Part shown: piece after piece, positions 16,601 through 56,700 of the stretch | How positions within the stretch are numbered: the stretch's first letter is position 1 | Layout: each line of letters starts with the position of its first letter | Source: Schmidtea polychroa | Taxonomy: Eukaryota | Assembly (NCBI GenBank): GCA_044892525.1 | Contig: CM097885.1 | Span: forward strand, 46,810,001-46,873,726 | DNA: 63,726 nt | Reading direction: 5' to 3' | The notes under the pieces: generated by a model | Database searches by the model: none | What the model was told of the DNA's origin: nothing | Seen by the model: only the letters and a program-made list of their open reading frames with translations | Position numbers and translations under genes: made by a program

Positions 16601-19600
16601 AGGATGTAAAATAGAGAATAATAGTTGCATATATTTATCTCTACCCAATACACTAGTATGAGGAACCAGTTCTTATCAAATATTGAATAGCACTATTGTG
16701 TGTATTGGTTGACAAATAGAATTTATTTGTTTAGTAAATGTGAAATTATGCATTGATCAATAAACCCAAATATCTAATATTAGATATTTAGTGTTCTGAA
16801 ATATGTTAATAAAAGTTTTTCATTAATTATCATGTATATTTTGCTAACTTTTCACAAACAAAAAAGACAACACAGGTTTGTCCGTTTGGTATATATATTT
16901 ATGAACAAAAATATAATAAAAATCTTTACAAAAACACCAAATTTAATTTGCATTTCCACATTATTTCACAAATTAAAAAATGACAAGATAAGTAGATAGA
17001 TGAAATATAAAATTAGAAAAAACAATGAAATACATGAACAAAAAACCGATTAAGATTACTTAAGTTTTTTCGCTGTCATAATTTGTCATTATACACATCT
17101 GGTTGCGAAAGACTGTTTCAAAATCACTATCGTTTATCGAAATGTTTTGTTCTGTTACAAAAGCCAGGTTATCCGGGTGGTCTCTTCAACAAGATTAGGA
17201 TTTCCTAGAACTGATTGGGTGTTTCGTTTGTCAGTGAATTATATTATTAAATCCGGTTTTTGATAACTCATTGTATAATTTTTCCGAGGAGCAATACAAT
17301 ACTTCAGATTATGTTAGAATTATCCATCTCTTGCGACAATGGAATTGTTTGTCAGGAAATGATTTTCTAATTTATTAGCAATTAGAGTTTTAAGTTAAAA
17401 CTTTTAACCGTTTTAAATCAAAATTGTGTAAAAAAGATAATTAATAATTAACGAATTATAACTGTTTCTCATTAAAAACATCAATATTCCATATAAAAGT
17501 TAGCAATTCTAAAATAGCAGCTTACGAACTACTCGCAACATTTCAAATTTGCTTTAGAGTCGGGATATATTATCCCAATGGTATTATATGATGAGATAAT
17601 TTATTCCAAACGTATTTTTTATATCTTTATGTTATTTTTTTTGACGAAAAAATGTAATACCTGTTTAGTAAAATAACACGATTAAGAAAAGATAATCGGG
17701 GACTCAAAAAGTTAACAAATTTCAAAATGATAGATTAATTAAATACTTTAAACGCAAATGTTTTTTGTAGCAATTTATTTGAAATATTTAAGTACTAATG
17801 AATATTATATTCTCTGGTCATAACAATAATTAAATAAATTACGAGTTACATTTTATTTATTTTTCACTGAACAAAAAAATTTAAACTGATCAATGAATCG
17901 AAAATTCGGATTAAAGATTTTGCGAAAAATTGTTAATAATTCATATAGCTGTGTTCAAAATCAGCGCGCTCTTATTTTTCTAATGAATTAAAAACTGTGG
18001 ATAAAAATAAGTAACTTTAATACTTAAAATAAAATCATCAAATTTTCAGAAATTGGTTATTTTTCACGGATTATAGCTACCCAACCCGAGAAGCATGAGC
18101 GCACATACTTCTTGGGTGTAGTCTTTTTAAAAAAAAGGATAATTGGCTATTTTTTTAATAGTTTTCGAACTCTCATACATGTTTCACACTTTTTAAAATT
18201 TCACCACAAATTTCAAAAACAACAAGAAACATTTATATTTATATAAGATTCACGTCAATATAACTATCGCAAAATTTTCAATGGTTTTTATTTACATTTC
18301 GTAAATTTAACGGAAATTTGTTTGACATCATGAGACTCGATACGAATTGATTTTTTGTACAGAAATATTTCAAATAAATTCAGATCGAGGGAACAGAATT
18401 AAAATTTTCTCCATCGTAAATTCCAAATTTTCTGTCCCTCGATTCAGAAGTACTTTTCAAAATATTTAACATTGGTTGCAGAATTCCTGAAATATTTCTC
18501 GTTGATACACTCAGCTTTGCTTTATTTCCTTTTGCTACTTGAAATTCTTTCTGAACTTTTTGATCAAGATGAAGAATCTTGTTTGAAAAAGGAAATCTTA
18601 ACTGAAAGTAAAGTGGAGTTGTTTGCATTTTCCAGTCTATTTGACATAATCTTATGATAAATGGTTTTAAATGATGATTTACTAGAAGAAGAATGTATTT
18701 TATTCAACTAAAACTATAAAAAATGGTGAAATTTAAGGATAATTTTGAATATATGAAATGAATATCAATCCAAATATTTACTCAGTACTATTTTTTTAAA
18801 TTTAGCTTTTTAATTTTGTTTTTTAACAAAAATCTTTATAAAATTTAAAATTCTTAAAATCTTATGGATTAATATGTTGATAAGGAAATTTATTTTAATG
18901 CGCATTCTAATTAAGAATTTAAATAGAAAATTTTTTTTTCACAATTTCTATAAATTTTCTTACAATAGATTGCGCGCGCATGCTCCTCGGAGGGAGACGG
19001 TAGTATTTTAATAAATAATAAAATTTCGCGATTTTATTTATTAAAAGCTTTAATGTTGGGAGTTTTATAGAACAAGGGATTTCATATCACTGACTTCATT
19101 TTGAAATTGTAATTACATTTAAAACATCACTAAAAGCGAAATATATTTTATTATAACTCAAACTGTTATCTTAAAATTGACATCTTGTAAATTATTAGTT
19201 TATATATAATTTTTACACAATGTTTATTGTAAGTATTAGCATCAGTTTCGAACACCGATAATCAATAGATCCACTTAAACGAGCGGAAGTTTAGTGCTTC
19301 AAATTTTATAGGTCATTAATAATAATGAAGTTGATTTGATCATTTTAATTTTACTTAAAGATATATTTCAAGAGCGCTAGAAAGCATATGTGGAAGCAAT
19401 AGTGAAAAAATAATCTGGACTCAGGAATGTGAGAAAGCTTTCGAAGAAATGAAAATGGCGTTGACTACAGCGCCAATTCTCGTATTTCAAGATTTCAAGA
19501 AAGAATTCATATTAGATACAGACGCAAGCTTTGATACAATTGGAGCTGTATTATCACAAAGAGATGAAATGGGGCATAAACACGTTATTGCATATGGACC

Positions 19601-22600
19601 CCATGCAATGAGTAGCCATGAAAGAGAATATTGTATAACACGAAAAGAGCTTTTGGCTATATATTATTTCTGTCGCCATTTCAACCATTATTTATACCGT
19701 AAACGGTTTGTTTTGCGCACTGATCATAAAGCAATAACTTTTATGTTGACGACAAAGAAGCCTATAACAGCACAGTTCCAAACGTGGATAAATTACTTGA
19801 GCAGTTTAGACATAAAAATGGAGTTCAGGAAAGGTACGGCGCATACAAATGCAGATATGCTGTCTAGAAATACATGTGGCAAATGTGTACAATGTTTGAT
19901 GGACCATGATAACCCCAAATCAGGGCGATTAAAAACTAGATTGTTAACATTGATGACCGAAAATAATGGAAATGAATGGCAGAGATAATGCAGAAATACA
20001 AGATATAAAAGATCAAATAAATGAAAGGAAAAATAATAAATATATATTAAAAAGAAATATTATCTATACCAATCAAAACAAAATATGGATACCAGAAACA
20101 AAAAAACGAGAAATGATTAAGGAAACACATTTATTATTATGCCACGCAGGAGTAGAAAAAGTTATGAAATATAATAGGAACAATTTTGATATGGAAGATT
20201 TGCTAAATGAAGTAAAAGAGACTATTTCAATATGTGAAGCATGTCAGAAAAACAAAGTTTTAACTACAAAGTCAAAAGAAAAAACCCAAGTAATTCAAGC
20301 TTCAGAACCTATGGAGAAAATATACATGGATATTTGCGGTCCATTAAGAGAAACCTTCAGAGGAGAAAAATATATTTGTGCAATAATCGATCATTACAGT
20401 AAATACATATCTCTAACTCCTATTAGAAAGCAAGATGAAAATACAATAAAGGCAGTTTTTTTAAATAATTGGATATTGAAATTTGGAGCCCCTAAGGAAC
20501 TACATGTTGATTGTGTAAAGAATTTTGAAGCAAATAGTATTAAAGAACTAGCAAAGGCAGCAGGAATTGAGTTGATATTTTCGAGTCCGTATCATCATAA
20601 TACTAATGGTGTAATTGAAAGACAATTTCGTACTATAAGAGACTATATTAACGCGTAACTCAGAGAAGGAGTTAAAAAAGCTGGGCAGAATTAATATCTG
20701 ATATAGAATACGTTTTAAATGCGACAGCTCAAAAAACTACTGGAGTGAGTCCAGTAGAAATTATATTTGGGAGAAAGATTAATAGATCGCAATGGCATAG
20801 TAATAATGAAGTGGATAGAAGTGAAATCATGCGGAAATTAGAGGCTAAAAGACAGCAAGCGAAAGAAATTGGCACAACTAGGAACTTAGAAGTGGGGGAC
20901 AAAGTATTGGCGAAACAACAAATTAGGAACAAAGATCACGAGAGATATGAAGGACCATACACAGTAATAAAACGAAATCATGAAAGAAGTTACTTATTAA
21001 CAGACGAAAACGGGAGGAAAATAACGAGGAATATAGAAAAGTTAAAGAATTTTAAAGTAGGGGGATGAAAGGAGTTAGTAAATCTCTATATAAAATTATT
21101 ATGGTTAAATGGTAGAAGTGAGATCAGTTAGTAGAAATAATTATTTCTGTTAAATTTTTATATTTAAATTCTATATTAAATTATATCATATTATATTAAA
21201 TTATATTAAATTAAATCAATTAAATGTATAACCGGTAATTACATTAATATTAATAATTATCACGCCTCGGTGTTTAAATACGCTAGTAAACGGCGCAATT
21301 TTGAAGTTGTTATTAAAATAAATACTTGAAGAAGACTTGAATTTAATTTCGTCTAACAGGGTAAAAAATATTTTATCAACTTTTAATATAACATTTTGAG
21401 ATCAATTTTGAATTTTTATACATGTTTGAATGTAAAATCAATGATTTTTAAGGTTTAAAATTAAAGAGTATTAGTTTATTTGTATAAGTTTACTATATAA
21501 TACAATATCAAAATATACCAACACAATAAAGGACACTTGTGCGTAAATATTGATTAATCTCTTTAACTTATAAAAGAAAATAAATGTTTTTATTTTAAAA
21601 TAAGAAAAAAAACAGACAAAACTTCTAAAAATAATATTTGTAAGATTTTAAAATTATTTGCATTGAAGGTTTTTTATTTGTTTTACTTTATATTTCAATG
21701 TTGGAAAATTCGTAATTGTTTGTGTTGAGAGAATTGTGGATTATTTTACAATATACAGGTAATCCCCAAAGAATTTGTTCCGTGTTCTTTTAAACCGTGT
21801 TGTTCGAGACTACAAAAAACGGAATTTCCGTTTCAAGTGTGAAAATATAAAACTAAAAATTTTATTTTTTGAATTCAATTTAGTAAACACTTCAAAGAAA
21901 TCTTGTATTACATAATTCAAATTAAATTTTTAATTAGTTTAGAAAAAAAATTTTTATCTTAAATTTTTATTATCAAAATAAAACAAAAAATTTGCAAGCA
22001 TATCTTTATTTTGTTAAAATGACATTACCATGCCACCTAGTCCTTATCACTGGAGTCATCTGGTAACGTGATTCTAGTATATTTTCTTGAAAAATGACAT
22101 TTGGAGATTATATTATATCAAATAATAAATATATTTTATTCTTTTTCCATATAATTACTTGAAAATCGTGTAGTTTGAAACCGTGTAATTCGGACCAAAG
22201 TATTCGTGTTCTTCGAGGGTTGATTTTATTATTTAAAATATTTTTACCATCCTAAAATTTGCGGTTAAGTATATCTAAAAATGATATCAATGTTTGTAAA
22301 TATGATAAAGGCAACGGTTTAGTTATTTTGGAACTTGACGTCTACATTAGAAAATTAAATAATGTTTTATTAGCTCTACAGCTTATAAAAGTGGAGACAA
22401 CCGTATTAATCGGAAGTTACCACCAACGAAGGATGAATTGTTTTAGTTAAAACTGTTGAAGGAATTATCAGATAAGAAACATATGGACGTTGACTTAGCT
22501 AAGTCTATTCAATCGAAAGGCTCACAACCAGCAAAACGTCATGGAATACCTAAAGTGTGGTATCATTTGATGTGCGTAGTCTATTTTCGAATGTTCCACT

Positions 22601-35230: not shown

Positions 35231-37476
35231 ATGTCTTTGTTGAGTAAGAAAGACGATTCTATGCCCGTTTTGCCATTTGACAATTTAAATCATTGGATTT
35301 ATTGTGTATGTGTTGTCACTTTCGATTTAGAATTAGGTCAAGCAATGGAGGTAATTAAACATTTTATACATAATATGAAATTAATTTTCAAAAATCTAGT
35401 GCATTTATCCAAAACATATTAAGCTCGCCGATTCTGAAGTAGTATTATAGATAAATTTTTATTATTTTTTATTGCACATTAGAAATCCAATGTTAACTAT
35501 TTGTCTTTTCCAGATTCTAATTCAGGTTTCAAATTTTATTTTATTTATTTATTCATTACATACTTTGTTAGGTTGCATGGGAGATACAAGATACCATTTT
35601 AGATTTCGATGTAAGAAACCAGTGTTTCATAACGATGACAAAACAAGTGAATTTTATCCAGATTGTTTAAAAGTATTACATTTTATATTTAATAAATTAG
35701 TTTTTTCAATCATATTTTTTCTTATTGTTAAAAATTTCTCTGTTATTAAATTACTAATCTACAAATTAAAAACCTATTTTAAATTTTCTTACCCCGAGTA
35801 AAGTACCGATTTTTTAAAGTAACACTAAATAGGTAATAACTAATAAAGAGTAGCAAATTCTTCATAACAATATGAATTGTATTTTAGCGGGGTTACAACG
35901 GGGGTATTAAAAGCAAGCAATGCTTCGTAGTATCTAGTTAAAAGGATCCTCATATAAAATTGCCAAGTTCGACCATGTAATCTATTTACATTGTAAAAAG
36001 TATAATGAAATAAAATAGCAATAGCTATAATCGGTTTATTTATATAAAGAACATAAAAAGTAACATTCCAATATGAAAATAAAAGAACAATTATAAAAAT
36101 CAATTTTTGTTACAATGGCTATTTGTTTCATATATGGAAAAGGATTCTTTTTATCAGAATTACCTACTAAACGAGATAAACATTCAGATGCGTTTTTATA
36201 CGTTTTTCTCTTTGGCTTAAAACCTGCCGCTTTTCTAACCCCATTTCGCCATGTTTTTAGTTTTAAAAAAGTTAAATGTTTAAAATCACATTCTCTTTAC
36301 ATCTAACTCTTAAATTTTAACTCTTACATCAGTAAATTTCAATCTTTAACTGACCTTCCAAACCCCCATAACGGCTGCCCTTACAATTTGACCCTTTTAT
36401 CAACTTCTCTAGCGACATTTTCAACTCTATAATGACCTTAAATGACCTTCAATCAATATTAACCTTGATCCATTACATAATATGGTATTGACCTCAAATA
36501 CACTTGATCTTCAAATGACCTTGACCAGGGTTTTGATTTTGAATTTCTAAGAGATGTCGTTGACCAATTTCCTTAAAAATTCGAATAAGTAGCAAATCGA
36601 GTATGTTGATCAATATTTCGTTGAAAAAAATTTGAAAAAAATTGCCTGAAATGGGATTTGAACCCATCGGTCTTTGCATTGCTAATGAGTGATATTACCA
36701 CTAGGCTATCACTGCGGTGTTCAATACAAAAATTGTTGTTATTGTGTGCATATTTATTGATTAAATTAATAATTAATTAATCATTATCTTGACAACTACC
36801 ATTCAGAATGCTCTAAAAATTTAATTACATGGCAAAATCAGTACGTTAAGGACAGTCAACGATGGGTAATGATAGAAAGTACATCAGCTTGCTTTGTATT
36901 AATGAATTCCGTTTCCACTTAGATCAAATGAATGAAAAAACAGGGCAAATAAGATTTCTATAATTAAAATGACATGCAGAAATAACTTGTTGTCAATTTT
37001 ATGCCTTAACCCCTTGAGTCGCGGATTATTATTTTTCTCAAATCGAGTTATTTTACACACCTGATACTTTATTAGCAGTAATGTTCGATTACAAGAGAAG
37101 TGGCTGAAAAATCCCATTCACTTATTTTCAGAGTTACAACTAAAAGAAAATTTGGGATATTTTGTAGTGGGATCACCTGTCGCAACAGCACATTATAAAT
37201 TAATGGTAGATTGAAAACAAAACTCAAATTTAATTGTAAAAATGTTTTATAATTATGGAGTACAAAGAGAATACAAAAAGTCAAATATATTTTAATTTAT
37301 TATGAAATGGAAGGAAACATGATTGGCATAACTGAACGATTCTCTCAAAATCTATTGAAATATAAGCAGGTAAAGAAAACACTAGCACCGATACGTTACT
37401 GCTAAAGCAATAAACGGTAACTTATACGAACTTGGCGCACTAGAGTAGGGTGAAAGATAGAGAGTGACTGATGGGA

Positions 37477-37549
<73 letters not shown>

Positions 37550-40500
37550 TTTAAATATTAAATTTAAACTAACTTAATTTTACCCTATTAGACGCAACAA
37601 CCCCAACGCCAATGTACCTTGGCACGGCCCTGTATAAATCTTTTTTTATAAATAAATAGTTAAACCTACATGGTAACGATTTAATTATAAGAAGGTGCCA
37701 CTCAAAAATTCATTTTACGATATATTTTGACAGTTTTCCTGTCATCATCAGGTAGGATATAATAACTATATAGATTATAGATTCTTGAACAAATTTATGC
37801 ATTATAAGAACTTCTTTCAATTTTCACCTCTGATTTCTTTTCAATTGACATTGCATTTATTTAAACATTGACTATGAATCAGTAAAGATATAAAAAACAT
37901 CAATATCTTTACTGATTCATAGNNNNNNNNNNNNNNNNNNNNNNNNNNNNNNNNNNNNNNNNNNNNNNNNNNNNNNNNNNNNNNNNNNNNNNNNNNNNNN
38001 NNNNNNNNNNNNNNNNNNNNNNNNNNNNNNNNNNNNNNNNNNNNNNNNNNNNNNNNNNNNNNNNNNNNNNNNNNNNNNNNNNNNNNNNNNNNNNNNNNNN
38101 NNNNNNNNNNNNAATTTTAATTTGTTTAACTTTTAAAATTTTACTTTATCTAAGAAATTGTTTTCTAAATAAATTTCAAATTTTTCATTTATAATAAATC
38201 CTCTTTGTATAAAAATAATCTTCAGTAATGAAATTCTAAAATCAGTTAACCTTCTCCGTGTAAAAAATAATGCTGATATTTATAGTGAGCCGTTCTATTC
38301 CCACAAAAACGGTTACAAAATGTGCCTTCAGCTTCATCCCGATGGATTCAAAGCTGGAAAAGGGACACATCTTTCTGTTTTCTTTTTCATAATGCGCGGT
38401 GAAAACGATGCACTTTTGCAATGGCCTATGAAACTGGAATTGACATCTTGCTTTATTGTCGAATATATTCAACAAATATACGGAGAGGGTTAAATATCAA
38501 ATATGCAAAATAAACACCCACTATAAATTTACTTATTGAAATAAAGTGTACTTATTATTACACATTTTTTTCATTTTATTGTATCAATTTAATTTAAGGG
38601 ATTTTTCCGTTTTTCATTATTCCTTATTTTAAATTCAATTTCCTCTAACACTGTATTAAATTTTATGATTTATATTTAATAATCTTTATAATTGTCGGTA
38701 CAAATATTTACACTGAAATATACATGCACACGCTATCATTTATCATTAATAATTATCTTGATGTTTATTGCTTGCATAAATTAAGCCGCAGCGTAGATTT
38801 TTATAAAAATTTTCTTTTTATCACGCGATTTTAAATTAAATCTTTAAATCTATATTAAATTAAATCTAATAAATCTATATTTAAATTAAATCTATTTGAA
38901 ATATGCTAGAAAATGGTCATTGATTAAATAAATTTTATTATTGACAAATTCTTTATTTTAATTAAGCAGATTAACAGTGAATTTCGTATTTTCTTCCTTG
39001 TATTATGTCGGTAGTTTTAGTTAAGCAATTAAAATTAAACAAGAGTTTTGTTTACAATTTAAACACGAGTTAGACGGACAAATTGAAAAATACTTCATTA
39101 CAAAAATAATTACTGGAAAATATCACGAAAAAGATTTTTTCAAATGACTGTCGAAAGACAAGTTTTATTTAGACGCGTCTTAACAAAATACGAGAGGATT
39201 GCTTCCTATTGAAATTATTTTGAATCATAAAAATAAAGTTACAATTGATTCTAGATAAAACCTTAGAGTTAAATTAGAATTAAATTAACAGTTGAACACA
39301 GTGTAAAAAGAACTATTATTAGAATAATATATATGGATGAAAATAAATACAAAACACTTTGAAATGTGATAAATTTTTCATTTGTAAGGAGAAAGATGAT
39401 ACTTTGAGATTGAAATACTATTAGGCAAAGACAATTAAATAGCTAAAAAGTTGGAAGAGTTTTCAAGGTGGAAGAGTTATCTATTTATTTATTTTATATA
39501 TTATATTTAAAACTTTAATATTTAATCGAATTAATTACTGAATTTGAAAAAAGGTAAGAAAGGAAAAAAATTTTATAATGAAATAATTTATATTTTACTG
39601 TGACACATTGCTACCCCGACAAGATTCTATTGCTCCCTGAGGGAACTTTCGACCCTTTTATCTAATCTGATGAATTCAAACAATCAACAAATTGTTGTCA
39701 TTGACTATTTGTCAACAAATTCACTGATAACAATACGTAAACGATTCACTTAAAATTTTAAAATTATTTCAAGCAAATTTGTAAATTTTTCAATAAATTT
39801 TTTAAGTAAACATTTATCATATTAAATTAATTAGATTAAACATTTCTAATTTTGCGTTTTGAAAGTTATATTTAAAGAAACAAAAAATAAAAATAGAATG
39901 GACGCATTAAAATATTATTGAGACTATCACCGTTTTACATGTTATTAATTATGTTTCATTTAACTTTATAAATTGATTTTTCTTTGATTAATTGCTGTTA
40001 TATAGATAATAAAATTCCAAGAAAAATGCGCGAGTTCTTATGTGTAATAAAAGTTGCTAATTTAAATATTTGTTTTAATAAAGTGAAACATTAAAATATT
40101 TTTAAATTTTTTTTTTGAGAAAATCAAAATATTTAAGTTACAAATTTATGAATAAGTAAAAATGACTTATAAATAGATAATAATTATTATAAGAAGTAGT
40201 GTGTTTATATCCCTAACGACCACAAGCCTCCCACTGTTTTCATGTTTTATACCTATTTTTCCCCCATAAACGTAAAAAAAACACTTAAAACCCCTAAAAA
40301 CCTATATCTTTTAATTTCTTTATTCTGAAGACATTTTGGTTTCAAAATAAAGACTTAAAAAAAACAACAAAAATATTAAAAAAACAACAAAAATATTAAT
40401 AAAACGGGGAAAAAAATACTGATAAAACTATGAAAAACGTTTGTCGGCTTGCGGTCGTTAGGGATATAAACACACTACTTGAGGATGTCAACTAGCAAGT

Positions 40501-43500
40501 TGCTATTTGACTAATTTATAATTTTATAAATCTTAATCTTGAAGAATAAAAAATTTTATGAAAATAGTAAAACTGCTCTGAGAGGACAGTGGTATTTTTT
40601 TTTTTTTTTTTTTCACTGTCCTCTCAACAGTTTTTTTTGATCCGGATCATTTTTTTTTTTTATTTCAACCTCTTTCGTTTATCAAATCTCTTCCAATATA
40701 CAAGCTGGCCAGACTTATATATCAGAATCAATTCGATAATAGCAGCACACCTTATTATTCGCTTCTCGCTCACGAAGTCGATTTCATCGGCGTTTTAAGT
40801 GTGCTGCTCGAAAGTACAAATGAATTCGAAAGCGAATCCGAAAGAGGTCCGAAAACAACCAAGAAATAAATGTGCACATTATAGAATCGATCCGGGGGTG
40901 TTCGAAAGACTGGTGGCGATAATTACCGGTTCGCCACCATCACCCGTTTCAATATTTTTTTTTTCATATTTATGTTTAAAAATTAATTAATTAATAAATA
41001 AATAAATAAAATAAACAAGATTTATTTCCTAAGATACCCACACCATTTTTCAATATTATTTTCAAATTTTTAATATTATTTTATGTTGAAAAAAAAACTA
41101 ACCTCAGACGTGATTTGAACCGCTAGCATTTGAACCACTGTGCCAGTCTATTCCCACTGCGCTATCGGAGTTCGGATTTTTGTCATTTTTTAAATTTTTA
41201 ATTAATAAAAAAATAAAATAAAATAAATAAAATAAAAATAAATAAAATAAAATATAAATCTAAGATACCCACACCATTTTCAATATTATTTTCAAATTTT
41301 TAATATTATTTTATGTTAAAAAAAAACTAACCGTAGTTAGGATTTGAACCGCTATCCATTTGAACCACTGTGCCAGTCTAGCCCACTGCGCTATCGGAGT
41401 TCGGATTTTTATCATTTTTTAAAATTTTATTATAAAAATGAATAATATAAATCTTAAAATTCAAGAAAAAAATAAATTAAATCTTGATTATAATAAAGAA
41501 TTTACTCATGAAATCAAGAAAAATGATATTTTAAAAATCTCGCCAACTTCAGGATCTATTGCAAACTTAAATCGTAGGGGTGATATAGTTTTTCAATCTC
41601 TTCAAACATCAAACCCAATAGATATTTGTAATGCCAAATTATATTATAAAATTGAATTAGAAATTGAAGCAAACAAAGATATAACCATAGAAAACAATTT
41701 CTTTCCAAATTTATTCTCCAACATGAGATTAAAACTAGGATCATCAGAAATTGAAACTGTTTTACATCCAGGAGTATATTCTACAATGTTAAATTTTATT
41801 TTGACTGGTTGTGATTATAAAAATGAATATGGTGAATTAACAGGTTGGATTCCTGATGTTAATAAAGGAGATTTAGATAAAGATGGTTTAGATATAAATT
41901 ATGCTTACTATAAAAGAGCTGAACTTTATAAGTTGAAAAAATTTGAAGGTTATTTTGAATTAAAACACTTGTTCGGATTCCTTCAAAACTATAACCGGGT
42001 GCTCCATAATGTTTTTATAGAACCCATCTGTAATAGACTAGAAGGTGATAAAAGATTGTTCTATGGAGCTGCAGATACAAAAGCTAAATTAAAATTATCA
42101 ACACTTGAATTGCATATACCTGAATGGAGATTAAATCCACATTCTGAAATCAAACTCCTTGAAAGATTAAATTCCAACAAATCTATAAATGTAAATTATT
42201 TAAATCGAATCTGTAGTGAATTTAGTATGACAGAGGGTTCAACATATTCTATAAAGGTAGCAAATTTAGCATACCGACCAAGATATATCTTGATTGGATT
42301 CAAAGAAACAGATTCATCTTTCCAAAAAAATAACAATCTATTTATTCAAAAGATTGGAGATGATAATATAAAAACAATCCAAATTCAATTAAATAGTTCT
42401 TATTATCCAATAAATAGAATGGAATTTAATATTGAAAATAATGAAAACATATTCCCATATCTAAATTATATTGAAACATGTTATGATTTCAAAGTTGAAC
42501 CGCAATTAAGTTTAGAAGATTTCAAAAATTTATATTCTATATTTTGTATAAATGTATCAGACCAAGATGATCGCCTAGCTATAAATAATGTTGATGTTAC
42601 ACTTCATATAACAAAGGATTCTAATTTTAAAGCTAAAGTATATACATTAATATTAGAAGAAAAGAAAATAGAAATGAAGTTGTATGCTGGAAAGATTTCA
42701 ATTATTGAAAATGTTAGGGGAGATTCTTCATAAGTAGATTCCCCCATAAAAAAACTTTTAAAATGAGTAAATATTGGACATGTGAAAGTTGTAATTGTCA
42801 AGTTACAAGACATCACAAAGCAAGTCATCTCAAAACTAAAAAACATACGAGAGTTGATATTACAGGAGGTGATCTACAATCTTCAAAAACAACATCTAGA
42901 ATCTTGAAACTTTTTACTAATGAAAAATATCCAGGTGAAAGACATTTATTCCATCACAACTATACTGGACCTGGAACAAGATTAGATATTAGATTAGATG
43001 AAAATAATAATCCTAAACAAGGAGAAGAACCAATAAATAGAATTGATCAAGCAGCTTTAAAACATAACATTTCTTACAACTCTGAAGATCTTAGAGATAA
43101 ACATGTTGCTGATGTGAATTTAATACATGAGTTAAATAATATACAAAATCCATCAAGCAAGGAAAAGATTCAAAGAGCTCTAGTTAAATTAGCAATGAAA
43201 GGTAAGATTTTCATAGGCTTAGGACACAGTCCGATCACCATGGGTGCAAGACTTCCTAGGAAAGCAAAAGATGTTGCTAATAAAAAGATTATCGAACAAG
43301 CAGAGATTGAAAGATCCCTCGAGAGTACAGCCAAGACTAGTTTACAAACCCCAACAGAATCAGAAATAAAATATGCTAATGAATTACACCATGAATTTAG
43401 AAAAAATAAAAAATATTTAAAAGTTCAAGTACATGAAAAAGATCAAACATGGTCTGCTGATTTAGTCTTTATGCCCAAATCATCAGACCCTGAAAAATAT

Positions 43501-46500
43501 AAAATAATTTTAACAGTAATAGATTTATATACAAGATTTGCTTTTGCAAGGTGTTTAGAAAATAAAACAGGATATTCTATTACAGAAGCATTTGAAAATA
43601 TATTTGAAGAATATCAAAGAATTCCAAAATATTTATGGTGTGATAAAGGAACAGAATTTTATAACAAAGTTTTTACAAAGTTTTTAAATGAAAATGATAT
43701 TAAATTATATTCAACAGAAAACGAAGGAAAAGCAGTTGTGGTTGAAAGATTAAATAGAACATTAAAAAATAAAATGTGGAAATATTTTACTGCTATTGGA
43801 AAACAAAAATGGAACAATGAATTGTTACAAAAGATTGTAAATGAATATAATAATGATGTACATAGTTCTATAAAATCAACACCTTTAAATGCTTCCATGA
43901 AGCCTGAAACCATTAAAGTGGTGAATATTGAAAATGATGTTATTGTTGATACAACCCCTATAAAACCAAAGTTTAAAATTGGTGACCGAGTAAGAATATT
44001 TAAATATAAAAATAAATTTGAAAAAGGATTCACAGCAAAATGGACAAATGAAATTTTTATTATAAATAAAATACATTATACAACTCCAATAACATATAGC
44101 ATCATTGATTTAAATAATGAAAAAATATTAGGTAGATTTTATAATAATGAACTACAGAAAACAGATTTTTAAGTCGACAAGCCCTAAAACAAACTTTTCC
44201 ATATTTCAGCTTCTTCTCTATCCAAATAAATATAATTATATTTTTCTTTCCAATGATTATCAACAAACATATCAAACATATTCTTATCAGGTTCAACATT
44301 TGAAAATAAGTCATTATAAATCATATTCTTATCTCGACGATCTAATTTAAAAAATATAAAACAATTGGAATTATTTCTTATAGAGTTTTTATCTAAAGCA
44401 TAATATGTTTGAGATATATAAATAACATTACAATTATTATGTCTACCTCGTGTAAAGTAACTCTTTTGAATCTCTTGATTTTTCATGTTAACAACATCAT
44501 CAAATATAACTAGATTCTTTTTATCTTTAGGAAGTAAATCACAATGCAAAACATCTTCAGGTTTATTAGAGAATAAAACTCTAATCCCATAACCCTCCCT
44601 CTGCCCCTCATCTTCACAGATGTAATCATTTTTATTACTAATATCTGATTCTAAAATCTTTTCCTTGTACCAATCAACCATATCACAAGGATGAAAAACC
44701 TCTTCGGGATATGTATGTTGATTTTTAAAAATATCAATTATTGCTTTTTTAGTTAATTTATTTTCAAATCCACATTTCAAAAGTTGTAATTCCGGTTGGT
44801 TAATGGTTGTAGAATAAAAGATTAAATTATTATAATCCAAAAAACCATCTTCTAATAACATTCTCATAAGAAGAACATTCTTTCCACATCCAGAAGATCC
44901 AATAATTAAGCATCTAAAATTATCAGGAAATACTTTATTATTAAATTTAGATTTATGTCTATTTAAAATTGGTTTCCAAGTATCCATTTTTATTTATTAT
45001 AAAATGACAACACAAAACCCTACAGAGGAATCTTTGCAAGAATTAATAAATTCAAATAAAAATAAATCAGTAGTAATCTCTGGTAAAAACTATTTTATTG
45101 GAATACATGTAAAAGAACAAGTTAAAGAAAAACTAAAGGAAGGAGGGATTCTTCCTCTGGCGGCTTTAATACCTGCAATCATTGCCGGACTATCAGGTGC
45201 TGCTGGAATAGCTGGAGGAATTGCAACTACAGTTCAAAAAGCTAAAGAATCTCAAAAGACAGACCTAGAAAAAGAAAAACTACAAACTGAAATCGAGAAA
45301 ATGAAGGGAGGGAAAGGTCTTTATCTTGATCCTTATAAAGGTCGTGGTTTAAATGATTTTTTAAAAAATCAAATTTCTACATCTGAATCTTTATCTTCAA
45401 AAGATAAAGATGATTTAAAAAAAATATGTAAATCTTTAAAAAATGGATGTCTTTGTAAAATTAAAAATGGTAAAGGTTTATACTTGAAACCCTTTCCAAC
45501 GGATCCTTTACCAAAATGATACCATTTTTAATACCATTAAAATGGTATATGAAGAAAGATTAGCACTTTTAAAAAAATTACAATCAGATCAAGATAAATA
45601 TAATAAAAAAGATACAACTCAACACGCTGAATCTATAATATTAAATGAGGTAATCCAACAACAACAAGGACCAACAATTAAAGCCATAAAAGAGTTAGAA
45701 GTTTTAAAATTTAAAGAGTTGGAAGATAAACAAGATTTAAAAGAATTACCATGGTTGGAAGATTTAAATATAAAACCTCTTATACTTGATCCTAAAATTA
45801 ATGTGAGTTTAAGTAAAACAATTAAACCTACATTTAATATTAATGTTGAAGGATATCAAATAATAACAATTAATAAACATGACTTTCTGTTATATTTAAA
45901 TTCAGAAAATAAATCACGTATTCATTCACAAAATGTTTATAATACTAAACACCTAGATTTTGAATTTACAGATGATTTTTATGGATTAGTTTGTGGATAT
46001 CCCTCAGAGAATGTTGATCTTCTAGAAATTAAAAAATATTTAAATTTAATAGAATTAGTACATGGTAGTGCTAAAGCAAAACATATTCAAGATTTAAAGA
46101 AATATTTAAATAAAAATGAAAGGGGTTATATTGTCACAGAAGGAGAGGGCCAGGGAAAGGGTAAGGAGATAAACCCAATCAATCTTTTTATTGAATTAAG
46201 AAAACTATTAGCAGCTAAAAAAGCAGGACATAATAATTTAGATTCTGATATTTTAAAGATTTCTAAAGAATTATTAAAACAAGGAATAATTTCAAAAGAT
46301 AAATTTAATAAGTATACGAAGTTATAAATACGAAGTTATAAAATATAAAATGACTCCTTCAATATTAGATTTTTTAAAAACATTTGGAATAAATACAAAA
46401 ACAAATTTTGATTTAAAAGATTATGCAGATTATTTAAATTTAAAAATAAAAATATTAATGAATGATGAATTGTCGAGTCTGAAAGAAGACACTCCAAAGA

Positions 46501-49500
46501 ATATCATTATAAATTATCAAAATTCAAATGAAAAAGGATCTCATTGGGTTTGTATATATAATAAATCTATATACTTTGATTCTTTTGGGATTAAACCCAC
46601 TAAAGAAGTTGAAGACTATCTCTCGGACTACACTTTTAATTCTTTACAAGTTCAACCTAATAATACTAAAATATGTGGTATTTTAAGCTTATATGTTTTG
46701 TATAGATTGAATAAATCCAAAGGAGAAGGTTTCACTTCCTTAATCCAAGAAATTTATAATGATTTAAAATCTATACTATGAAAATGGAGCTTCGCAACCT
46801 TCCGGAAGATAATTTAAAAAAAATGGTAAACATAATGTCAGATAAATATTCAAGAACTTTATCTATAAATTCAAAAGAATCAGACTTTACTATAAACTTT
46901 CAAGATTCAATTAAATTAGATCAAAATTTAAATTATGAATTAGGACTATTATGGTTTTGTGCTTATAATACTATTTTTAATATAACTAAAGATAATAACA
47001 TATTTTATTATATAAGCCCAAAATCTACAGATAAGATTATAATAACAATCGAACCCGGAGCTTATGAAATAAAAGATTTAAATAATATACTTTCTAAAAA
47101 AACAAATGGAGTCATTAAAATTAAAATGGATTTACCAACTTCAAAATGTATAATGACTTTAGAGAATATAGGAATTCATTTTCAAAATAATAGTTTCTTT
47201 AGAACAATTTTAGGATTTACACGAAACCATTATATCACACCTGTAGTTGAGAATATAACATCAGAAAATATTATAAAAATAATAAATACAAACACAATAA
47301 ATATTCATTGCGATTGTATAACTGGTTCTTATAATAATGGTAAACAAACAAATGTTTTATATTCCTTTCCCTCAAACACAGTTCCTATGGGATATAAAAT
47401 AGTTGAAAGAATGAATCCTCCAAATTATTTACCTTTATGTAGAAAATATATAATGGATATTAATTTTAAAATTCTTAATCAAGAAGGAGAATTGATTGAT
47501 TTTAATGGAGAAGAGATTTCAATGTATTTACATTTGAAACAGGTTTGAAGATTCATTTTAAATTATTAATAAATGAGTTCTTATATTCCATGTAATAGAG
47601 GTGGTGGAACAATAAAAACAGGGTTTAATACAGAAGAAATATTAACTTTAACAGAAAATAAATATATTAATGAAAGAGGTGATTCAATGAAGGGTGATTT
47701 AATTTTAAATGGACACAAGATAAAAGAATTATCTTTTCCAACTGATGAAGCTGATGCAGTTAATAAGAAATATGTTGATGGTGTTAAAAAATATACTGAT
47801 TTAACAACAACAAGAATTGAAAGTTCATTAACAACAAAAATTGATAATATCGAGCAACGATTTAATGATAAATTTGACAAGTTACAAAGTCTGTTAACTG
47901 AACAAGTTGTAAAGTTAAATACTAGCATATTAAATTCTAAAGATAAACAAATTATGAATACTAAATTTAATACAATATATAATATAATAAATGAGATGAT
48001 TACATCATTTAATAAAAGACTTTCAAATTTAGAGTCTCATACAACACACATTAACACCACACATAGTATTAGAAAAAGAGCTGCTGAATTAGAACAGAAT
48101 AAAACATTATTACCCCATACATATAAACATTTTATAGAACCAAGTTTAATAACAACAAACAGTAAAGAATGGGGTGTTTTTATGGTTGTAAAGATTATTG
48201 ATCCTTATTTCTTTTTATTTGATGATGATAATGAAAAAATGAAATGGTTTGTGAAATGTGATTATAATAGTAAGCTTGAAAAGGGTGATGTTATAATGAC
48301 TAGTTATGATTTACCACACGGAGATTGGTATGTTAATACTCATTCACATGGACTACATAAAGTTAAAAGTAAGAATATTATTTTTAAAAGCACACTTGTA
48401 CAATATATAGATTTAATATTTTATGAAAAAAAGGTTGATGTTGATGAAGTTCGTAAAGCATTGATGGAATTGTATAAAGATATTCTCTCAACAAGAGTTT
48501 CTTTTGATATCCGAGTATTGGTACCAGATGGTGCTCAGAAGAATAAAGTCTTATTTTTTTAATTATTAAAATGGACAAAGTCCAAAAGATGGAAGAAGTA
48601 AGAGAAGAAAAAATTTACCCAGAGGTCCCTCCAGAATTGAGATCATCAGGATATTATTCCGAAGGTCACAAAAGTTCCAAGGCCTCGGCTCCCACAGAAC
48701 TTGAAATTATGAGAGTAAAAGAATTTAAATCAGAAACCTTACATTTACAAGATTTATTAAAGCATTATAAAAAGGTTAAAAATAGATGGAATAAAGGGAA
48801 TACAGTTTTAAAAATTATAGGTTATTCTTTAGGATTTGCATCTGCAATATTAACAGTTATTTTACCCATAACTTTACCAGTTTTAACAATAGCACCTGTA
48901 ATACTTGGAAGTATTTCTTTAGCTGATGGTTTCTTGACTGAAATAGTTTCATTATCTTATACTTCTAAAAAGAAAAGTTTATATCGTGAAGTTTGTTTAT
49001 CAATAGAATTAGGAATCTCTAAATTATTTTTATTTCAATTAAAAGCTTTGGAAGATGGAATCTTAACTGATGATGAAATAATGAAATCAAATCAAATAAT
49101 ACAAGATATTAAAAATAATATTAATAGATTAAAAAGTGCTAATGTTATAACTAATGAATATTCTAAAATAATTAAACGAGAGAAGTGGCTAAAGAATCAT
49201 ACATAAAAAAATTTATTGCCCTTCAAAAGGTTGATGTTGTCACTCTTAAATTAATTGTTGACATTTTTAAAAGAAAAAAATCATTTGATAGAATCTGATG
49301 TTAACTTTTCGAAATTAGTTTTTAGAACCTCCTTATGATCTTTAAATTCTTTATCACTTAGACCTTTTATATATTCAGGATCAGTATTAAAATATTTAAG
49401 TTCTAAACATATAGGATTAAAAACTTGAGAATATAAAGGTTTCTCAATTCTCTCAGGATAAATGATTTCAACATTATAAATATCAAGATCAGTAATCTTT

Positions 49501-52500
49501 GTATCATATAACTTATTCAAACTAGCAAGATTTTTTATTATCGGTATTAAATTATTTCCTATAGGAAGAGTTGTCTTTAAATCACTTAGTATGAATCTTT
49601 TATCATCATAATTTGATAATGATACTTTTTGGGATTCTATCAAGTAAATATCATGCTTTTCACTTTTAAGTTGATGTATTTCATCAATTTTATCTTTATG
49701 ATTTGGATTCAATGTATCTATATAATCTTGATGAGAAAGATTCTTTGCTACACATCTCTGAATTCCTTTACATCTGTTATCCTTTACAGGTTTTTCTTCC
49801 TGTCCGTCAGGTCCTTTAGGGAATATAGGATATCTATGTGTAATGCTTTCTTCTGTTTCTGGGGTTTTAAATATAAATGTATGTTCTTCAAATTTAGGAT
49901 TTGTAAATGTTTCATATGAATATTGTTTAGCACGAATAAATATTCCATTTTCTATAGGAGTAAAAGGTTTTTCATCTTTAAACGAAAATAATTCTCCAGA
50001 TGAATTTATTAAATTTGAAAGTATAGGATTTTCAGAGATATCACTTTGTAAATCGTGAGTTCTTATTGTTAAAAACATTGAATCTGTATCCATTGCATGC
50101 ATTGCTATATTCGATCCATATATAGGTTGTAAGATGTTATAATATGTTTCATACATTTGTAATTTTGAAAGTTCTAAAATTGCAAAGCCAATAAATATTG
50201 GTTTATTATATGTTTTCTCATAATTCTTTAGTTCTACTGCAGTAAGATTTTCAGAAAATACTTGTGCGTTTTTAAATGTAGGCTTTCCTAGCATACGATT
50301 ATAACGGGCTATATCTTTCGGGGTATTTGTTAGGAGTTCAATATGAGTATATTTATCAACATTCTCCATTGTCTTCCCAAAGACTGAATTGTTTAAAAGT
50401 TTATAATTATTGTCTTTTAAAAGGTTACCTTCTCTTTTTGCAATGTTTCGACAACGAATGTTCTCCTCGATGAAAGTCTTCATGAATGCTGCTTGTTTAA
50501 ATCTTATGACACTATGAACTTTTTTTAATATCATTCCTTGTGAAAGATAAAACTGGAGGAGTCTATAGTGACAAAGATAATAAGTTCGATCTGTTTGATC
50601 ACAAAGAAGTTTCATTGTTGGAGGTTTATCTTGTGAGATTTGCCATTCAGAAAGTTCGTTGATATCAATCTTTCTTCTTATAGGAGCTAAAGGGAAATGT
50701 CTTGTTCCTGATTTTATATCATCTGGGTAGTCGAGGTCACATTCTACAAAGTATCCTATTGGAGAATCTTTAGGAGTTGAACGTATTTCTTTCATAAGGT
50801 CTTTTAAGGGGCATTCTTCTTCTGAGGGGCATTCTGGAGGATATATTTCATGAAAGTCACTCATTGGTAAATATTGAGTCATAATTCCTGAATATAAAGC
50901 TGTTGCATCTATATAAAGTATAAATAGAGGATTTTTCATTCCTTCTAATACTTCTTTTAGTTCCTCATTGTTAAGTTTTATATATGGATCAGGGTGTTTA
51001 GAGATTCTTCGGCTAGTAGTTATTGCATTTCTAGCTTTTATTTCTCTATTCCCCATTACTGAAGATACTCCTCCTCTAATGTTTGTTTTAATTTGATTAA
51101 ACATATCTTGGTCGGTTAAAAGATCTATAATTTTATCAGATTCTGGAAGATCTGAAGTTCAAATGGTATATAACATAGTATCCCAAGCTAAAGAAGGAGC
51201 TGTTATATAATTATAAGGTTTAAGAACAAAAGACTTTGTAAATTCTTCAAAGCAATCTGCTAGAATATAAACATCTAGGGATAAGTACATACTTGTATAT
51301 TCTCCTAAAGTTTTACAGTTGAAAAGATCCCACATTTTATTTGCTCGAGAATATTCTTGATTTGTAATATGAGATTTTTGAAGTTGGGAATAGAAATCTT
51401 CTTTCTCTGGTAATTTTGTTTCATTATATTTTTCAAATGAATCAACATAGTCATAGGGATATATTCCTTTTGCTAAGCATGTAGGATATTCTTCTGGGGG
51501 GATATTATTTTTTTCCAAGAATTCTCGAGTGATTTTAAAATTTTCTGCTTTCATTGGTTTAGCTATTCCATCTAGAGACATTTGGAGAAAGTTTAACGAG
51601 TCTATAAATTTTAATTTTCCATATTCAACTGATTTATATTTTTCCTTTGTAAGTCCTATAACTTTGAAAGAGTTTTTAGCATTTTCTGCTAAATGTTTAA
51701 TAAATAGATGTATGTCATAACCAAAAAGATTATGAAATATAACTGGTACAAATTTAGGAGTATGACAATTAAGATTACAATTTCTATGGGCTGCTCCTCG
51801 ATAATTATTTTCCTTTTTTAAATGATCGTGATCTATAACTTTATCATCAGGAAGAATGTCTTGTTTACACATCCAACAGTTGGAAGTATTTTCATATTCT
51901 TGTTGTTGTTGATTAGAAATTTTTTGAGGATACTTTGTTTTTAATATTTTAAATATTTCATGTTCTAGATCATTTATACTTTTAGTAAAATGATTTAAAA
52001 CATCTTCTGAAGTTCCTTGAAATGCATATTCTCTAGATTCTATGAGTTCAGGATAATTACTTTTAAATAATAATTTATAAGCAGATGGTAATTGTTTAGT
52101 TTTTTAACACTATTAGGTTTATTTCTTTTTCTTAGAAAGGCTTTCATCCTCTCTGGTTTCATCTTCTGTTTAGAGGCTTTCCATTCATCCATGAGTTTAT
52201 ATTTTTCTATTATTTTTAAATATTGCATAATTATATCTTGTTTACGATTTATAGATTCAAAGTCTCCATAGACAACTCCTAATGTTTGTAATAAATTTGA
52301 AAAGTTTTTAAAATACATCCTGGGATCTGTAGGCATTCTAATTAAAGCTGGATCATCTTTTTCACAAAATCTTGCATGTTTAATCATAGAGTTTTTAGTT
52401 GTTGAATAATGAAGACATCTTTTACATGTTCCTCCTCCACTAGTTGGATTCTCTGGTGATGTAAAAGCTTGAAAGTCTTTTATTAAAACATAATGTTGAT

Positions 52501-53690
52501 TATTTCCTTCTTCCAAGATTAAAAGATATATCTCCCTCGTGCTATCACTATCAGAAATATAAATTGGAATAATATCTTTCCTTCCATGTCCCCATCCTTT
52601 AACATGTTCATAAATATTAAGTTTAAGATTATTTAGTTTTTCAAATTCTGGAATGTCTTCTAGTTTCATTGGGTGTGTGAATCCCTTGGGAAATATTAAT
52701 TCATTTTCATATTGTTTGTATTTTGAAACTCTTTGAGGGTTTTCAGCTTGAGGATGTAAATATGCAAGTATTGACCACATGAAACATTTGTTATCCTTAT
52801 TCTGTACATTTATAACAACCCTAGATCTAAAGGGTGTTTGAATATAAGATTTAGGATTAGGTGGTAATCCTCTCCAATAATCAATCACTAAAGTTTGGAA
52901 AGAGTTGAATACTAAGTTTGAATCTCCTAATTCATTTTCAACCTCTTCTTGTTTTGCTTCTACTGCTTGAATTATTTCTTTGATGCTTTTATTAAATCCT
53001 CTAGTTGAAAATAAATATTTAAAAGGTATTCCAATTTCAACATCTAAAGGAGTTGTCTTTTCTTCTGGTCCTCTCCAATATTTTGCTTTGATTGTAATTT
53101 TATATTTTATAACATTATACCTTGTTGGTTTATAATTTTTTAAAGCTTCAGTGAAAGAATTTTTAATATTTTTTTTATTTCTCTTTATATATTCTCCAGG
53201 AGTAGCAGGTCCACTGATTTCTGATTGAAATCCATCTATGTGATTAAATTTATCCCAGTTATATTTTTCTTTTTCAACATGATCAGGTTCTCCTTCTGAA
53301 TGACATTCTTCAACGTCAGAATTTTGTTTTTTATTTTTACATTCTTTTAAATGTCTTAAATAATAGAAATTTAGTTTTGTTGAAAAGTTACAATGAGGAC
53401 ATGTAAATATTTCTCTATTTTTCCCGATACAATTTTCAAAATGTTTATTATATCCAGAATGTAGAAATCTTCCTTTACATTTAGTACAAACTTTTGAATT
53501 TGTGTCATTAAGATTATTTTCTTTTAGTAAGTGAGCTTTCGATTTATAGTGAGAAATTAATCCTGTTTTATTTTTAAAAACTTTATTGCAAATATTACAA
53601 TTCATTTTTAGAAAAAATTTTTTTACTGGATACGTTGTTTTTAAATTTTTATATATTTATTTTTATTTTTATTTTTTTTTATTTTTATTT

Positions 53691-53722
<32 letters not shown>

Positions 53723-56700
53723 TTTTTTATATTTATATTCTAGCAGCTTGCCAAGCTATCGACCTGCCAAGCTGTCGACTTACCAAGCTGTCGACTTGCC
53801 AAGACCGCAGCGATTGCATCATCGACTTGACAAACTATCGACTTGATAAACTGGCGACTTGATAAACTGGCGACTTGATAAACTGGCGACTTGATAAACT
53901 GGCGACCTGCAAGTAGTGTGTATCTATCCCTAACGACCGCAAGCCGACAAACGTTTTTCATAGTTTTATCAGTATTTTTTTCCCTGTTTTATTAACATTT
54001 TGTGTTGTTTTTTTAATATTTTTGTTGTTTTTTAAGTTTTTATTTTGAAAGCAAAATGTCTTCGGAATAAAGAAATTAAAAGATATAGGTTTTTAAGGTT
54101 TTAAGTGTTTTTTTTTTACGTTTATGAGGGAAAAATAGGTATAAAACGGGAAAAAAATAGGTATAAAACATGAAAACAGTTGGGAGGCTTGTGGTCGTTA
54201 GGGATAGATACACACTACTATAAGAACTTTTTTTCCAATTTCACCACTGTTTTTCCATTGAATTTATTAAAAAAGCTTGAAGACTATAAATCAGTAATAT
54301 ATCGATGTTTTTGATATATTTACGGATTTATAGTCTTCAAGCTTTTTTTAATAAAATAATAATTAATTTAAACCAATTTTCTATGAATTTATAAAATCTG
54401 ATATTTTATTATTATTACTTATTACTTTTGTTTATCTTTATATTTTTACATTTTTCAGAATGTTTAATCATAACAAATATACCCAATGTTGAATGAAAAA
54501 TTTTGATTAAATTTCAAATAAATAGAAAATTATCTATTAAATCGTAGATAAAGAAACCAAAATTTTGTGAAAGAAATTTGAAAATAATTTTTAATAGTTT
54601 TGTTGAAAAACAGGAACTTAACCAAATTCTTTCTTGATAAACCGTAATTTTGTATTGAACTTCATTTAATCCTTTCGGTAAGTTGCAAACATGCTATTTA
54701 TGACCAAACTATAAATCAAAATTCATTAATTGTTATCGAAGTACGTTCAACTGCAACTACATATTATATATCAATTAACCGCGATGAGCTTTTTTTGAGG
54801 ACATTTACAAAGGGTTAAAATAAAAATACAAAAAATAACAATGTAATTCAAAAATTGATGGAAATTTTGTATTTATCTCGCCCTTATTTAGCCATCTCCT
54901 GATTTTTGCTACGGCTATGTTAATTTCCGTCAAGTCAAAGATAAGTCGATCCGACGAGGATATTTTCAAAAAGTAAATTTCACTACATTTTTTAATTTTA
55001 AATGTCTAATTTTTTTAGTCCGTAGTTGTTTTAAGCCCATTGCCTTTTATTAATTTATTTTATAAAGTATCGGAGTTAGTAGCGCTAGCATATTTTGACG
55101 ACGGAGAAATCGGCCTGGAAGTTGGTATGAAATATGATGAATAATTATTGAAATGAATCTGAACTATAGTTTGTCACAATATTGATAAATGGGGACCGCC
55201 AATGGCCGGACAGTTGATCAATCTTCCTTTGAGAGGAGTTGTTCTACAAACGCAAATTCCCATTAAAACTGACTATGTAAAATGTGAACCAAATGGAAAG
55301 GTGCGAATTTCGAAATCTATTATTCAGGACATAGAAGACAATGTTAATTCTCAACTTTATTTATCGATTTGTATTTAGTTGTAAAAATTTTGCAGGAGGA
55401 TCAGAAATTATTAATAGATAATTCATCAATTTGTATAATTCCATCTGTACATAATCAAGACTGTTTTACCGCTTTTGGAGCTGTAGTTAGCCAATTGCAA
55501 TTACTCTGGGAGCTCGTCTTAACCAATCAAGTAAATATTTCTGCATTTATTCCGTTACAGTAAATAAATTACTTATTAACTGTCATACTATTGAATTGAT
55601 TATTATACAGTCAATAATATTCTATTAATATTATTGACAGCTGGCATTTGAATATTTCACTCAATATTTCTATTTTTGAAGTAGAATTTATAATTTCTAT
55701 ATTGCTTGAAATTCAAATGTAATTTCTAACTTGTTTTTTGTCTGAATTCTAATGGAATTTTACCTTTGAAATAATATGATTTATCTTTATCAAATTGGAT
55801 TTAATCTATTACCATATTTGATCCCATAACAAATGGAGAAATATTACATTAATTGAAAAGGTCTGTAATGTCATCTATCAAAATGTAACTGCAATAAACA
55901 TGATAGTTGATTGATTCATCTGATTGTTTTTGACGTAACATAAGTGTATCATAGAAATTATTTCAATGATAATTGTCCAATTATATAATACACAATGCAA
56001 TTTATACCATTTTAATTATTGAATTTTTTTCATGAATTCATATATAAGTTTAGTGCAGAATTCTATAACTTGAAAGTTATTTGATTATATTACATTTTGA
56101 TAATGTTGCTTTTTATTATTGTTAACACTTGGGATGGGAAAAAATGGACATTATAGTAAAATGAAAGAAAATTCATAAACCAGTTCGAAATGATATGTTT
56201 TATTCAAAGCACGCTTGTATTAGTGAACTTCAAGTTGATGCTCTTCCATCATCTTCACTGGTCTTTCAGCGACAATATTGGATCTGGGAATATCCAGAAC
56301 AGGCGGCTTCTTAACCCATTGGGTTTCGAATCATTTTATCGCATTATGACATTCAAATGTTAAAATAGCAGATGTTTTATTAAATAATTAGGTAAAAACT
56401 CACTCAGTGGAAATAATACTCCAAAAATTTCTTAACTGAGCATCATATGAAAGCAGAAAGAAATAGGCTATTAGAGTAAATTTTGCGTGGGAGTTCCATC
56501 TGTTATTTAGCAAAGGAACCTTCACCATTTCTAATCGGAAACTTACCTGACTTCTGATGGAATTTATACGCTTCAAACACTCCAAAGGGAAATCGAACAA
56601 TGGAACGCGACAAGGTCGTTTTTTTATTAACATCATCAGATCCTGTGCATATTACAATATACAATATTTTCTTTCCTTTTTTGAAGCAGTTTTCAATCTA

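Follow-up and report, generated by a model that had tools for sequence, protein, structure and literature searches.

Outward-facing, tRNA-like Pol III promoter modules at the ends of a Schmidtea polychroa Polinton family as candidate cis-acting sites

When the left end of a Polinton in Schmidtea polychroa is analyzed together with the ends of its sibling elements, a plausible basis for its tandem tRNA-like units emerges. These units (unit A) have the geometry of Pol III genes and a fixed place near the element's terminus; their boxes and T-run are retained, a shared RNA fold is absent, and units have been gained repeatedly. A role in cis is the simplest account of this pattern, since it combines a retained promoter and terminator with a freely varying RNA body, repeated gain of units from different sources, and fixed spacing and orientation. 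We therefore suggest, with a probability of roughly one half, that the unit A copies are cis-acting TFIIIC/Pol III sites in an outward-facing terminal array that acts on the DNA.

In the mechanism that we propose, the two copies would be tRNA-derived, internal (type 2) Pol III promoter-terminator modules able to bind host TFIIIC, TFIIIB and Pol III at Polinton ends, and the bound factors would keep those ends open and shielded from silencing, as a barrier or as an open-chromatin anchor. Factor binding, transcription and barrier activity are thus putative properties of the units. The short unit A RNA would be a likely by-product, and the terminator would stop read-through into a neighboring unit (unit D). 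Ends would gain units by duplicating unit A, as in the element described here, or by taking up two units of the rDNA spacer, as most siblings appear to have done if the transfer ran in that direction. How many units an end carries seems to count for more than what their sequence is.

A tandem pair of Pol III modules beside the capsid gene

The window, by which we mean the whole 63,726-nucleotide stretch analyzed, contains the following features at and around the pair.

40195..54219, strand not assigned: Polinton/adintovirus-type element of ~14 kb, recognized by its TIRs, TSD and Pfam gene set
40979..41482, strand not assigned: direct duplication of the ~230-bp unit A module, two copies, 84% identity
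41089..41171, minus strand: unit A copy 1, predicted Pol III gene; A box 41164-41154, extra B-like motif 41136-41128, B box 41121-41112, T9
41318..41400, minus strand: unit A copy 2, predicted Pol III gene; A box 41393-41383, extra B-like motif, B box, T9
41438..42733, plus strand: major capsid protein gene (PF21738 double jelly roll, E 1.4e-25), back to back with unit A copy 2

The element has TIRs of ~290-310 bp that start with AGTAGT, a 6-bp target-site duplication (ATAAGA) and Pfam matches to a DJR capsid, a PLA2-like plus rve integrase, an A32 ATPase and pPolB. This combination of TIRs, 6-bp TSD, pPolB, retroviral-type integrase, packaging ATPase and double-jelly-roll capsid places it among the Polinton/Maverick (adintovirus-type) elements. 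Its capsid family is young, with all 97 of the matches scored (among 3286 candidates) being 96-100% identical.

The two arms of the duplication (40979-41248 and 41215-41482) are 84% identical over ~270 bp. A direct duplication with a period of about 231 bp had been claimed; the duplication stands, and the period, measured between the A boxes at 41164 and 41393 on the minus strand, is corrected to 229 bp. Each copy does carry on that strand the A box, the two GGTTCAAAT motifs and the T9 run described originally, and both B-box-like motifs are present, although only the second lies at tRNA spacing, with an A-to-B distance of 44 nt. With +1 placed 7 nt before the A box on the basis of tRNA geometry (41171 for copy 1 and 41400 for copy 2), the predicted RNA of the window copies is 74-75 nt long before its U tail, in agreement with the earlier estimate of ~75 nt, and copy 2 would start 37 bp from the capsid ATG at 41438, back to back with the gene and within one base pair of the ~36 bp first given. 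An A and a B box at tRNA spacing followed by a T9 terminator are what is expected, by sequence, of a type 2 Pol III gene. The 3' ends differ, that of copy 1 being an allele that is weakly tRNA-Trp-like and that of copy 2 an allele with a short hairpin.

Scanning generically for an A box and a B box at tRNA spacing returned three sites in 40195-41437 and a single site in the other 48.6 kb, outside the element. Among 2000 dinucleotide shuffles of the scan region, 1996 gave no site, 4 gave one and none reached three. The same scan places unit A at the left end of this Polinton only, with no unit at its right end.

tRNA identity and the SINE explanation

The original prediction held that the D and anticodon stems do not pair, and this was borne out: ARAGORN called 0 tRNA genes for the unit A copies, Rfam returned no tRNA match up to E 10 and no VA RNA match, the fold of the two window copies scored z = +0.41 and -0.28 relative to shuffles, and the acceptor, D, anticodon and T stems of a cloverleaf are not formed. 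The likeness of the 3' end of copy 1 to tRNA-Trp, also part of that prediction, turned out to be weak. The comparison covered four host tRNAs (Trp, Cys, Lys and Arg). Of 1000 shuffles that preserved the boxes, 26 matched host tRNA-Trp as well as or better than copy 1 did, and 295 of 1000 did so for copy 2; Trp was dropped as the parent of copy 1, the result being non-significant after testing 4 tRNAs. A derivation of unit B, a relative found in sibling ends, from tRNA-Cys was also dropped, Cys (9/1000 shuffles) being no better than Lys (2/1000). Geometry nevertheless makes a tRNA origin of the units clear. As a separate observation, host tRNA genes are tandemly arrayed over long stretches with periods of 278-424 bp, Trp-pattern matches numbering 793 and Cys-pattern matches 1000, for example from G000:C4:55022465, C1:269250644 and C4:76658343 on, and on C140 and C333.

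Exact matches to the unit A core number 883 for copy 1 and 507 for copy 2, at least 1390 in total, and this high copy number, together with the tRNA-like head, is what a host SINE inserted twice into the window's Polinton copy would give. We sampled the first 20 listed matches to the copy 1 core and 20 of the first 28 to the copy 2 core, all in the first 23 Mb of contig C1. Polinton sequence lay on both sides of 39 of these 40 matches and on one side of the remaining match; a match free of Polinton flanks was found in 0/40, so the dispersed copies with unrelated flanks that define a tRNA-derived SINE are missing from the sample. On the sense strand, moreover, the tRNA-length head is followed by neither a body nor an A tail. 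The SINE explanation, which had been named in advance as one that would undo the prediction, is contradicted for unit A within the 40-match sample, and we regard it as hardly credible. The units are, as had been supposed, fixed parts of the element with tRNA geometry: unit A is present in 57 of 60 sibling capsid-bearing ends (60 of 100 capsid loci were fetched) and lacking in 3.

Position, alleles and conservation in sibling ends

Fourteen of the 40 sampled unit A matches adjoin a zinc-finger ORF at the other end of the element, and, given the Polinton flanks throughout the sample, unit A is best described as subterminal and often present at both ends. The proposal that the units protect the capsid promoter is not supported by this finding, as their position tracks the element end instead. 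The commonest sibling layout has two further units, C and B, between the capsid gene and A (31/60, with another 2 that have extra units beyond the terminus). All typed units across the 60 ends face outward, and neighboring units are mostly 210-260 bp apart, except where a short ORF intervenes; the array to which the window's pair belongs has a spacing of ~230-250 bp. Most sibling ends have a charged ORF of 78 aa between B and A (for example L022:2040-2290), which is missing from the window's copy.

Two A copies occur in 7 of the 60 ends (8 by looser criteria), in three different backgrounds. The two 3' ends seen in the window are alleles, carried by 26 and 22 of 49 single-A ends, and the same 3' type occurs twice in 4 of the 7 tandem ends. 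The window's pair therefore looks like the result of an unequal cross between alleles, not like a specialized pair, and the analogy to VA-I and VA-II is correspondingly weak, since the tandem is a minority duplication of alleles that are also found singly.

Conservation in siblings, which had been suggested as a check, was assessed in 56 distinct copies gathered by BLAST and not by motif. None of the 10 columns of the true B box and none of the 8 of the T-run varies in >5% of these copies, whereas 28 of 57 other transcribed positions do; the A box has two such columns among its 11, both at degenerate positions. Boxes and remainder differ with p=0.0014, with the caveat that columns are not independent. 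Boxes and terminator are thus kept and the rest is variable; as the family is young, with capsids 96-100% identical, few independent changes lie behind these counts. The comparison supports selective retention of boxes and terminator. An alignment of A, B, C, a solo relative of B and host tRNA-Trp has 16 invariant columns, of which 12 fall inside the two boxes. Over 41 distinct copies, unit A has no shared fold (SCI 0.26) and ranges from 66 to 93 nt; its extra B-like motif can recur once more (L025, L026).

A conserved B box (0/10 columns polymorphic) is the sequence feature expected of a tDNA/TFIIIC chromatin barrier, an element that blocks the spread of heterochromatin in dependence on TFIIIC. 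Among the alternatives raised originally, a TFIIIC-bound insulator fits best, boxes being kept and the RNA lacking a fold; the capsid promoter as its target is not supported, and TFIIIC binding stays putative. TFIIIC-only sites need neither an A box nor a terminator, yet both are kept here, which would imply real transcription and perhaps some use of the RNA.

Such a use could be as a trans-acting decoy, either VA-like and directed against Dicer or RNAi, or as a sequence-independent sponge for La or piRNA factors that works through copy number. The A box, B box and terminator are intact, the output of at least 1390 exact core matches could be large, and one tRNA-like RNA of MHV68 is described as restoring virulence without its miRNAs (PMC4337559). 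The predicted 75-nt RNAs are, however, half the length of a VA RNA and lack its long stem (VA features as described in PMC4378190 and PMC6599070), their non-box transcribed positions vary freely, their two 3' types are alleles and not a fixed pair, and the related unit of a distant lineage, discussed below, has internal T6 runs. We consider decoys made from unit A decidedly unlikely, and the analogy to VA RNAs, as drawn for the two A copies, fails on length (~75 nt, not ~160), on fold (SCI 0.26) and on the rarity of the tandem (7/60).

Unit D as a candidate structured RNA

The third site of the box scan, overlooked in the original prediction, lies 228 bp outward of copy 1.

40545..40943, minus strand: unit D; A box at 40936, B box 44 nt on, 384-nt structured stretch, T-runs

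Its two boxes have the 44-nt spacing of unit A, and 50 of 53 near-complete sibling copies keep both; the structured stretch includes a 61-nt hairpin (~40676-40740) and a terminal hairpin that precedes strong T-runs. On the outward strand the 384-nt form has a fold z of -7.5, and one 65-nt hairpin reaches -6.9 outward versus -1.2 inward. An alignment of 33 sequences, in which the window joins 32 of the 50 distinct sibling copies, gives a structure of 82 pairs with 99.3% of cells paired and an SCI of 0.89, scored on the same alignment from which it was derived. Departures from pairing are G-U in 397 cells versus A-C in 10, and compensatory changes occupy 18 cells in 2 pairs; no shuffle in 500 reached that number of cells, whereas a count of two pairs was reached by 400/500. 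Rfam holds no family that matches unit D. A plus-strand reading of the region was dropped (z of -0.84 vs -2.91).

These features allow a reading in which the array is a Pol III cluster whose product is D, a TMER- or VA-like structured RNA of ~385 nt, with the A copies serving to load Pol III factors. There is a precedent in MHV68, whose left end carries a cluster of eight tRNA-like Pol III genes and hairpins downstream of them (PMC4337559, PMC4378190), and the retained boxes, the strand-biased hairpin, the near-complete pairing, the compensatory cells and the preponderance of G-U over A-C all point the same way. On the other hand, Pol III might already stop at the internal T4 at +89, and the resulting short form would be unstructured (z -0.03). 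The opposite strand folds too (z -5.5), and hairpins close to the termini could act in single-stranded DNA during replication. The two compensatory pairs, a number that most shuffles attain, and the shared origin of structure and score weaken the covariation, and an Rfam family match is lacking. We judge this reading unlikely overall. Between A and D, the better candidate for a small RNA is D. A broader version, which we likewise judge unlikely, has promoter-only tRNA remnants, enlarged by duplication and rDNA-spacer capture, loading Pol III at Polinton ends and driving a 385-nt D RNA that would yield small RNAs or serve as an RNAi/piRNA decoy.

Contigs of four runs cover a sibling end in part: X3 covers the D region, unit A and the capsid start, and X5 and X11 mainly the D region. 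As contigs show no strand, ends or level, we draw no conclusion on expression from them.

The rDNA spacer and distant lineages

Units B and C, which most siblings carry in addition to A, match the intergenic spacer of the host rDNA at 93-95% identity; of the 8 spacer positions covered, 5 have them and 3 do not. The spacer contains a row of 4-5 A-box/B-box units, 237-244 bp apart and antisense to the rRNA (L341:7285-8460, G000:C115:22285-23460; also L343, L345, L349 and L351). Units A and D were not found in the spacers covered, and the likeness of unit A to an extra spacer unit, E, is confined to the boxes (297/1000 and 117/1000 shuffles). Related pieces exist elsewhere in the genome, including one in the window.

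36531..36847, minus strand: solo 315-bp relative of unit B and the rDNA-spacer repeat, ~82%, outside the Polinton; A box at 36708, B box and T-run kept

Comparable solo relatives of B were seen at L094 and L095. A macrosatellite, a solo piece and a more diverged Polinton (L329) share spacer sequence that runs past the junction of the main family, and since these other genomic copies share more spacer than the Polinton does, the Polinton's piece looks clipped. This suggests that the rDNA spacer was the donor of units B and C to the Polinton. The element at L329 (G000:C1:267807601-267817600), with a polymerase 64% identical, carries its B/C piece with different endpoints, adjoining the polymerase end.

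A second, distant group of Polintons in this genome bears TBP. In one of five TBP-family elements examined (L314-L317, G000:C1:89093101-89133100), with an integrase 34% and a polymerase 30% identical, each inverted repeat contains a related unit that faces outward; the likeness of this unit to unit A copy 1 was reached by 1/500 shuffles. This unit is unlikely to yield a full RNA, because T6 runs lie between its boxes. The TBP-type unit also occurs as a 322-bp tandem array beside L119, beyond the Polinton end. The other four elements have no unit, from which it follows that Polintons in this host can thrive without one.

The units might, then, be neutral passengers, tRNA-like host repeats of the rDNA spacer and satellites that were caught in the recombining ends of a young element and spread by hitch-hiking. 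The near-identity of B and C to the spacer, the related pieces present as solos and in the macrosatellite, the differing number of units among ends and the 4/5 TBP-family elements without a unit are all consistent with this. The uniform outward orientation and spacing are not, nor is the presence of a related unit at the equivalent place in a distant lineage, and box-specific conservation of the kind seen in unit A was not found in the rDNA stretches examined. We find a purely passive origin very doubtful, and return to a cis-acting array as the preferred explanation.

Searches further afield returned no capsid relative in viral contigs. Metagenome contigs gave 18 capsid-relative loci, mostly of 1-4 kb and without termini, and the 8 that were scanned showed no unit, which is not evidence of absence. 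We examined 80 of the 89 stretches that the box pattern matched in viral contigs: 78 proved to be ordinary tRNAs, and there was no capsid or integrase match beside any of the 80.

Comparison with known systems

The closest parallel in layout is provided by the vtRNAs/TMERs of MHV68, which are tRNA-like Pol III units, not themselves tRNAs, clustered at one end of a dsDNA virus genome (PMC4337559, PMC4378190). The Polinton array is likewise a tRNA-like Pol III cluster at a genome end, and it resembles the TMERs more in unit D, with its tRNA-type promoter, hairpins and U tail, than in unit A, which has no cloverleaf and no hairpin before its terminator. In MHV68 the hairpins are part of the same transcript; that arrangement is absent from A, where T9 follows directly, and would be possible for D should Pol III pass the T4 at +89. 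TMERs are, according to the same sources, demonstrated transcripts that RNase Z processes into miRNAs, whereas the Polinton units are predicted Pol III genes.

Adenovirus VA RNAs I and II are also products of internal-promoter Pol III units, here matched by a tandem in an element with an adenovirus-like gene set. VA RNAs are very abundant, inhibit PKR and are Dicer substrates. As described in PMC4378190 and PMC6599070, however, VA RNA is ~160 nt long with an apical stem, a central domain and a terminal stem. Unit A has neither this length nor the long stems and central domain; it is ~75 nt long, lacks a conserved fold and sits close to the terminus, often at both ends, in 0-2 copies.

In both yeast and human, barriers to heterochromatin are formed by tRNA genes and TFIIIC sites, as reported in PMC12409998, and the tRNA-gene/TFIIIC (ETC) barriers covered there share with the array a clustering of B-box units in which the promoter rather than the RNA is conserved. 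The cases described in that source are host loci; the Polinton array is mobile, keeps A box and terminator, and has a putative barrier role. tRNA-related sequence within Polinton-like elements has been described for polinton-like viruses and MELD viruses, where whole tRNAs predicted by ARAGORN or Rfam are read as codon compensation (PMC12220804, PMC8502044), in contrast to the window's units, which fail both searches.

In the open-access literature searched, we found no description of promoter-only Pol III arrays in Polintons or spacers, and none of a non-coding RNA or insulator for Polintons. The array bears on how Polintons persist in animal genomes despite piRNA silencing; in a planarian, they are described as piRNA-silenced with H3K9me3 (PMC8532177). 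Many hundreds of young copies that keep Pol III promoters at their ends, with two units in common with the rDNA spacer, offer a direct test. Whether the array is a chromatin shield or a source of viral small RNA, it would extend an adenovirus/gammaherpesvirus trick to Polintons, and a D-driven cassette, if real, would be the first VA- or TMER-like RNA system of a Polinton.

Additional features of the element and window

The first 40-47 bp of the element recur in inverted orientation as a boundary of each TIR (40195-40480 and 53910-54219), and each end thus resembles a small self-contained element; sibling end L022 has the same arrangement with a different sequence. The integrase ORF (42763-44172) has an N-terminal PLA2-like domain (PF08398). 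The polymerase region consists of two adjoining ORFs, 49281-51104 and 51159-51872, and this split may be natural, given that distant Polintons of the same genome also match the two pieces as separate neighbors. Elsewhere in the window, remnants of an LTR-retrotransposon RNase H and integrase lie at 19449-20658, and an amiloride-sensitive channel gene (PF00858) occupies a single ORF at 749-2320.
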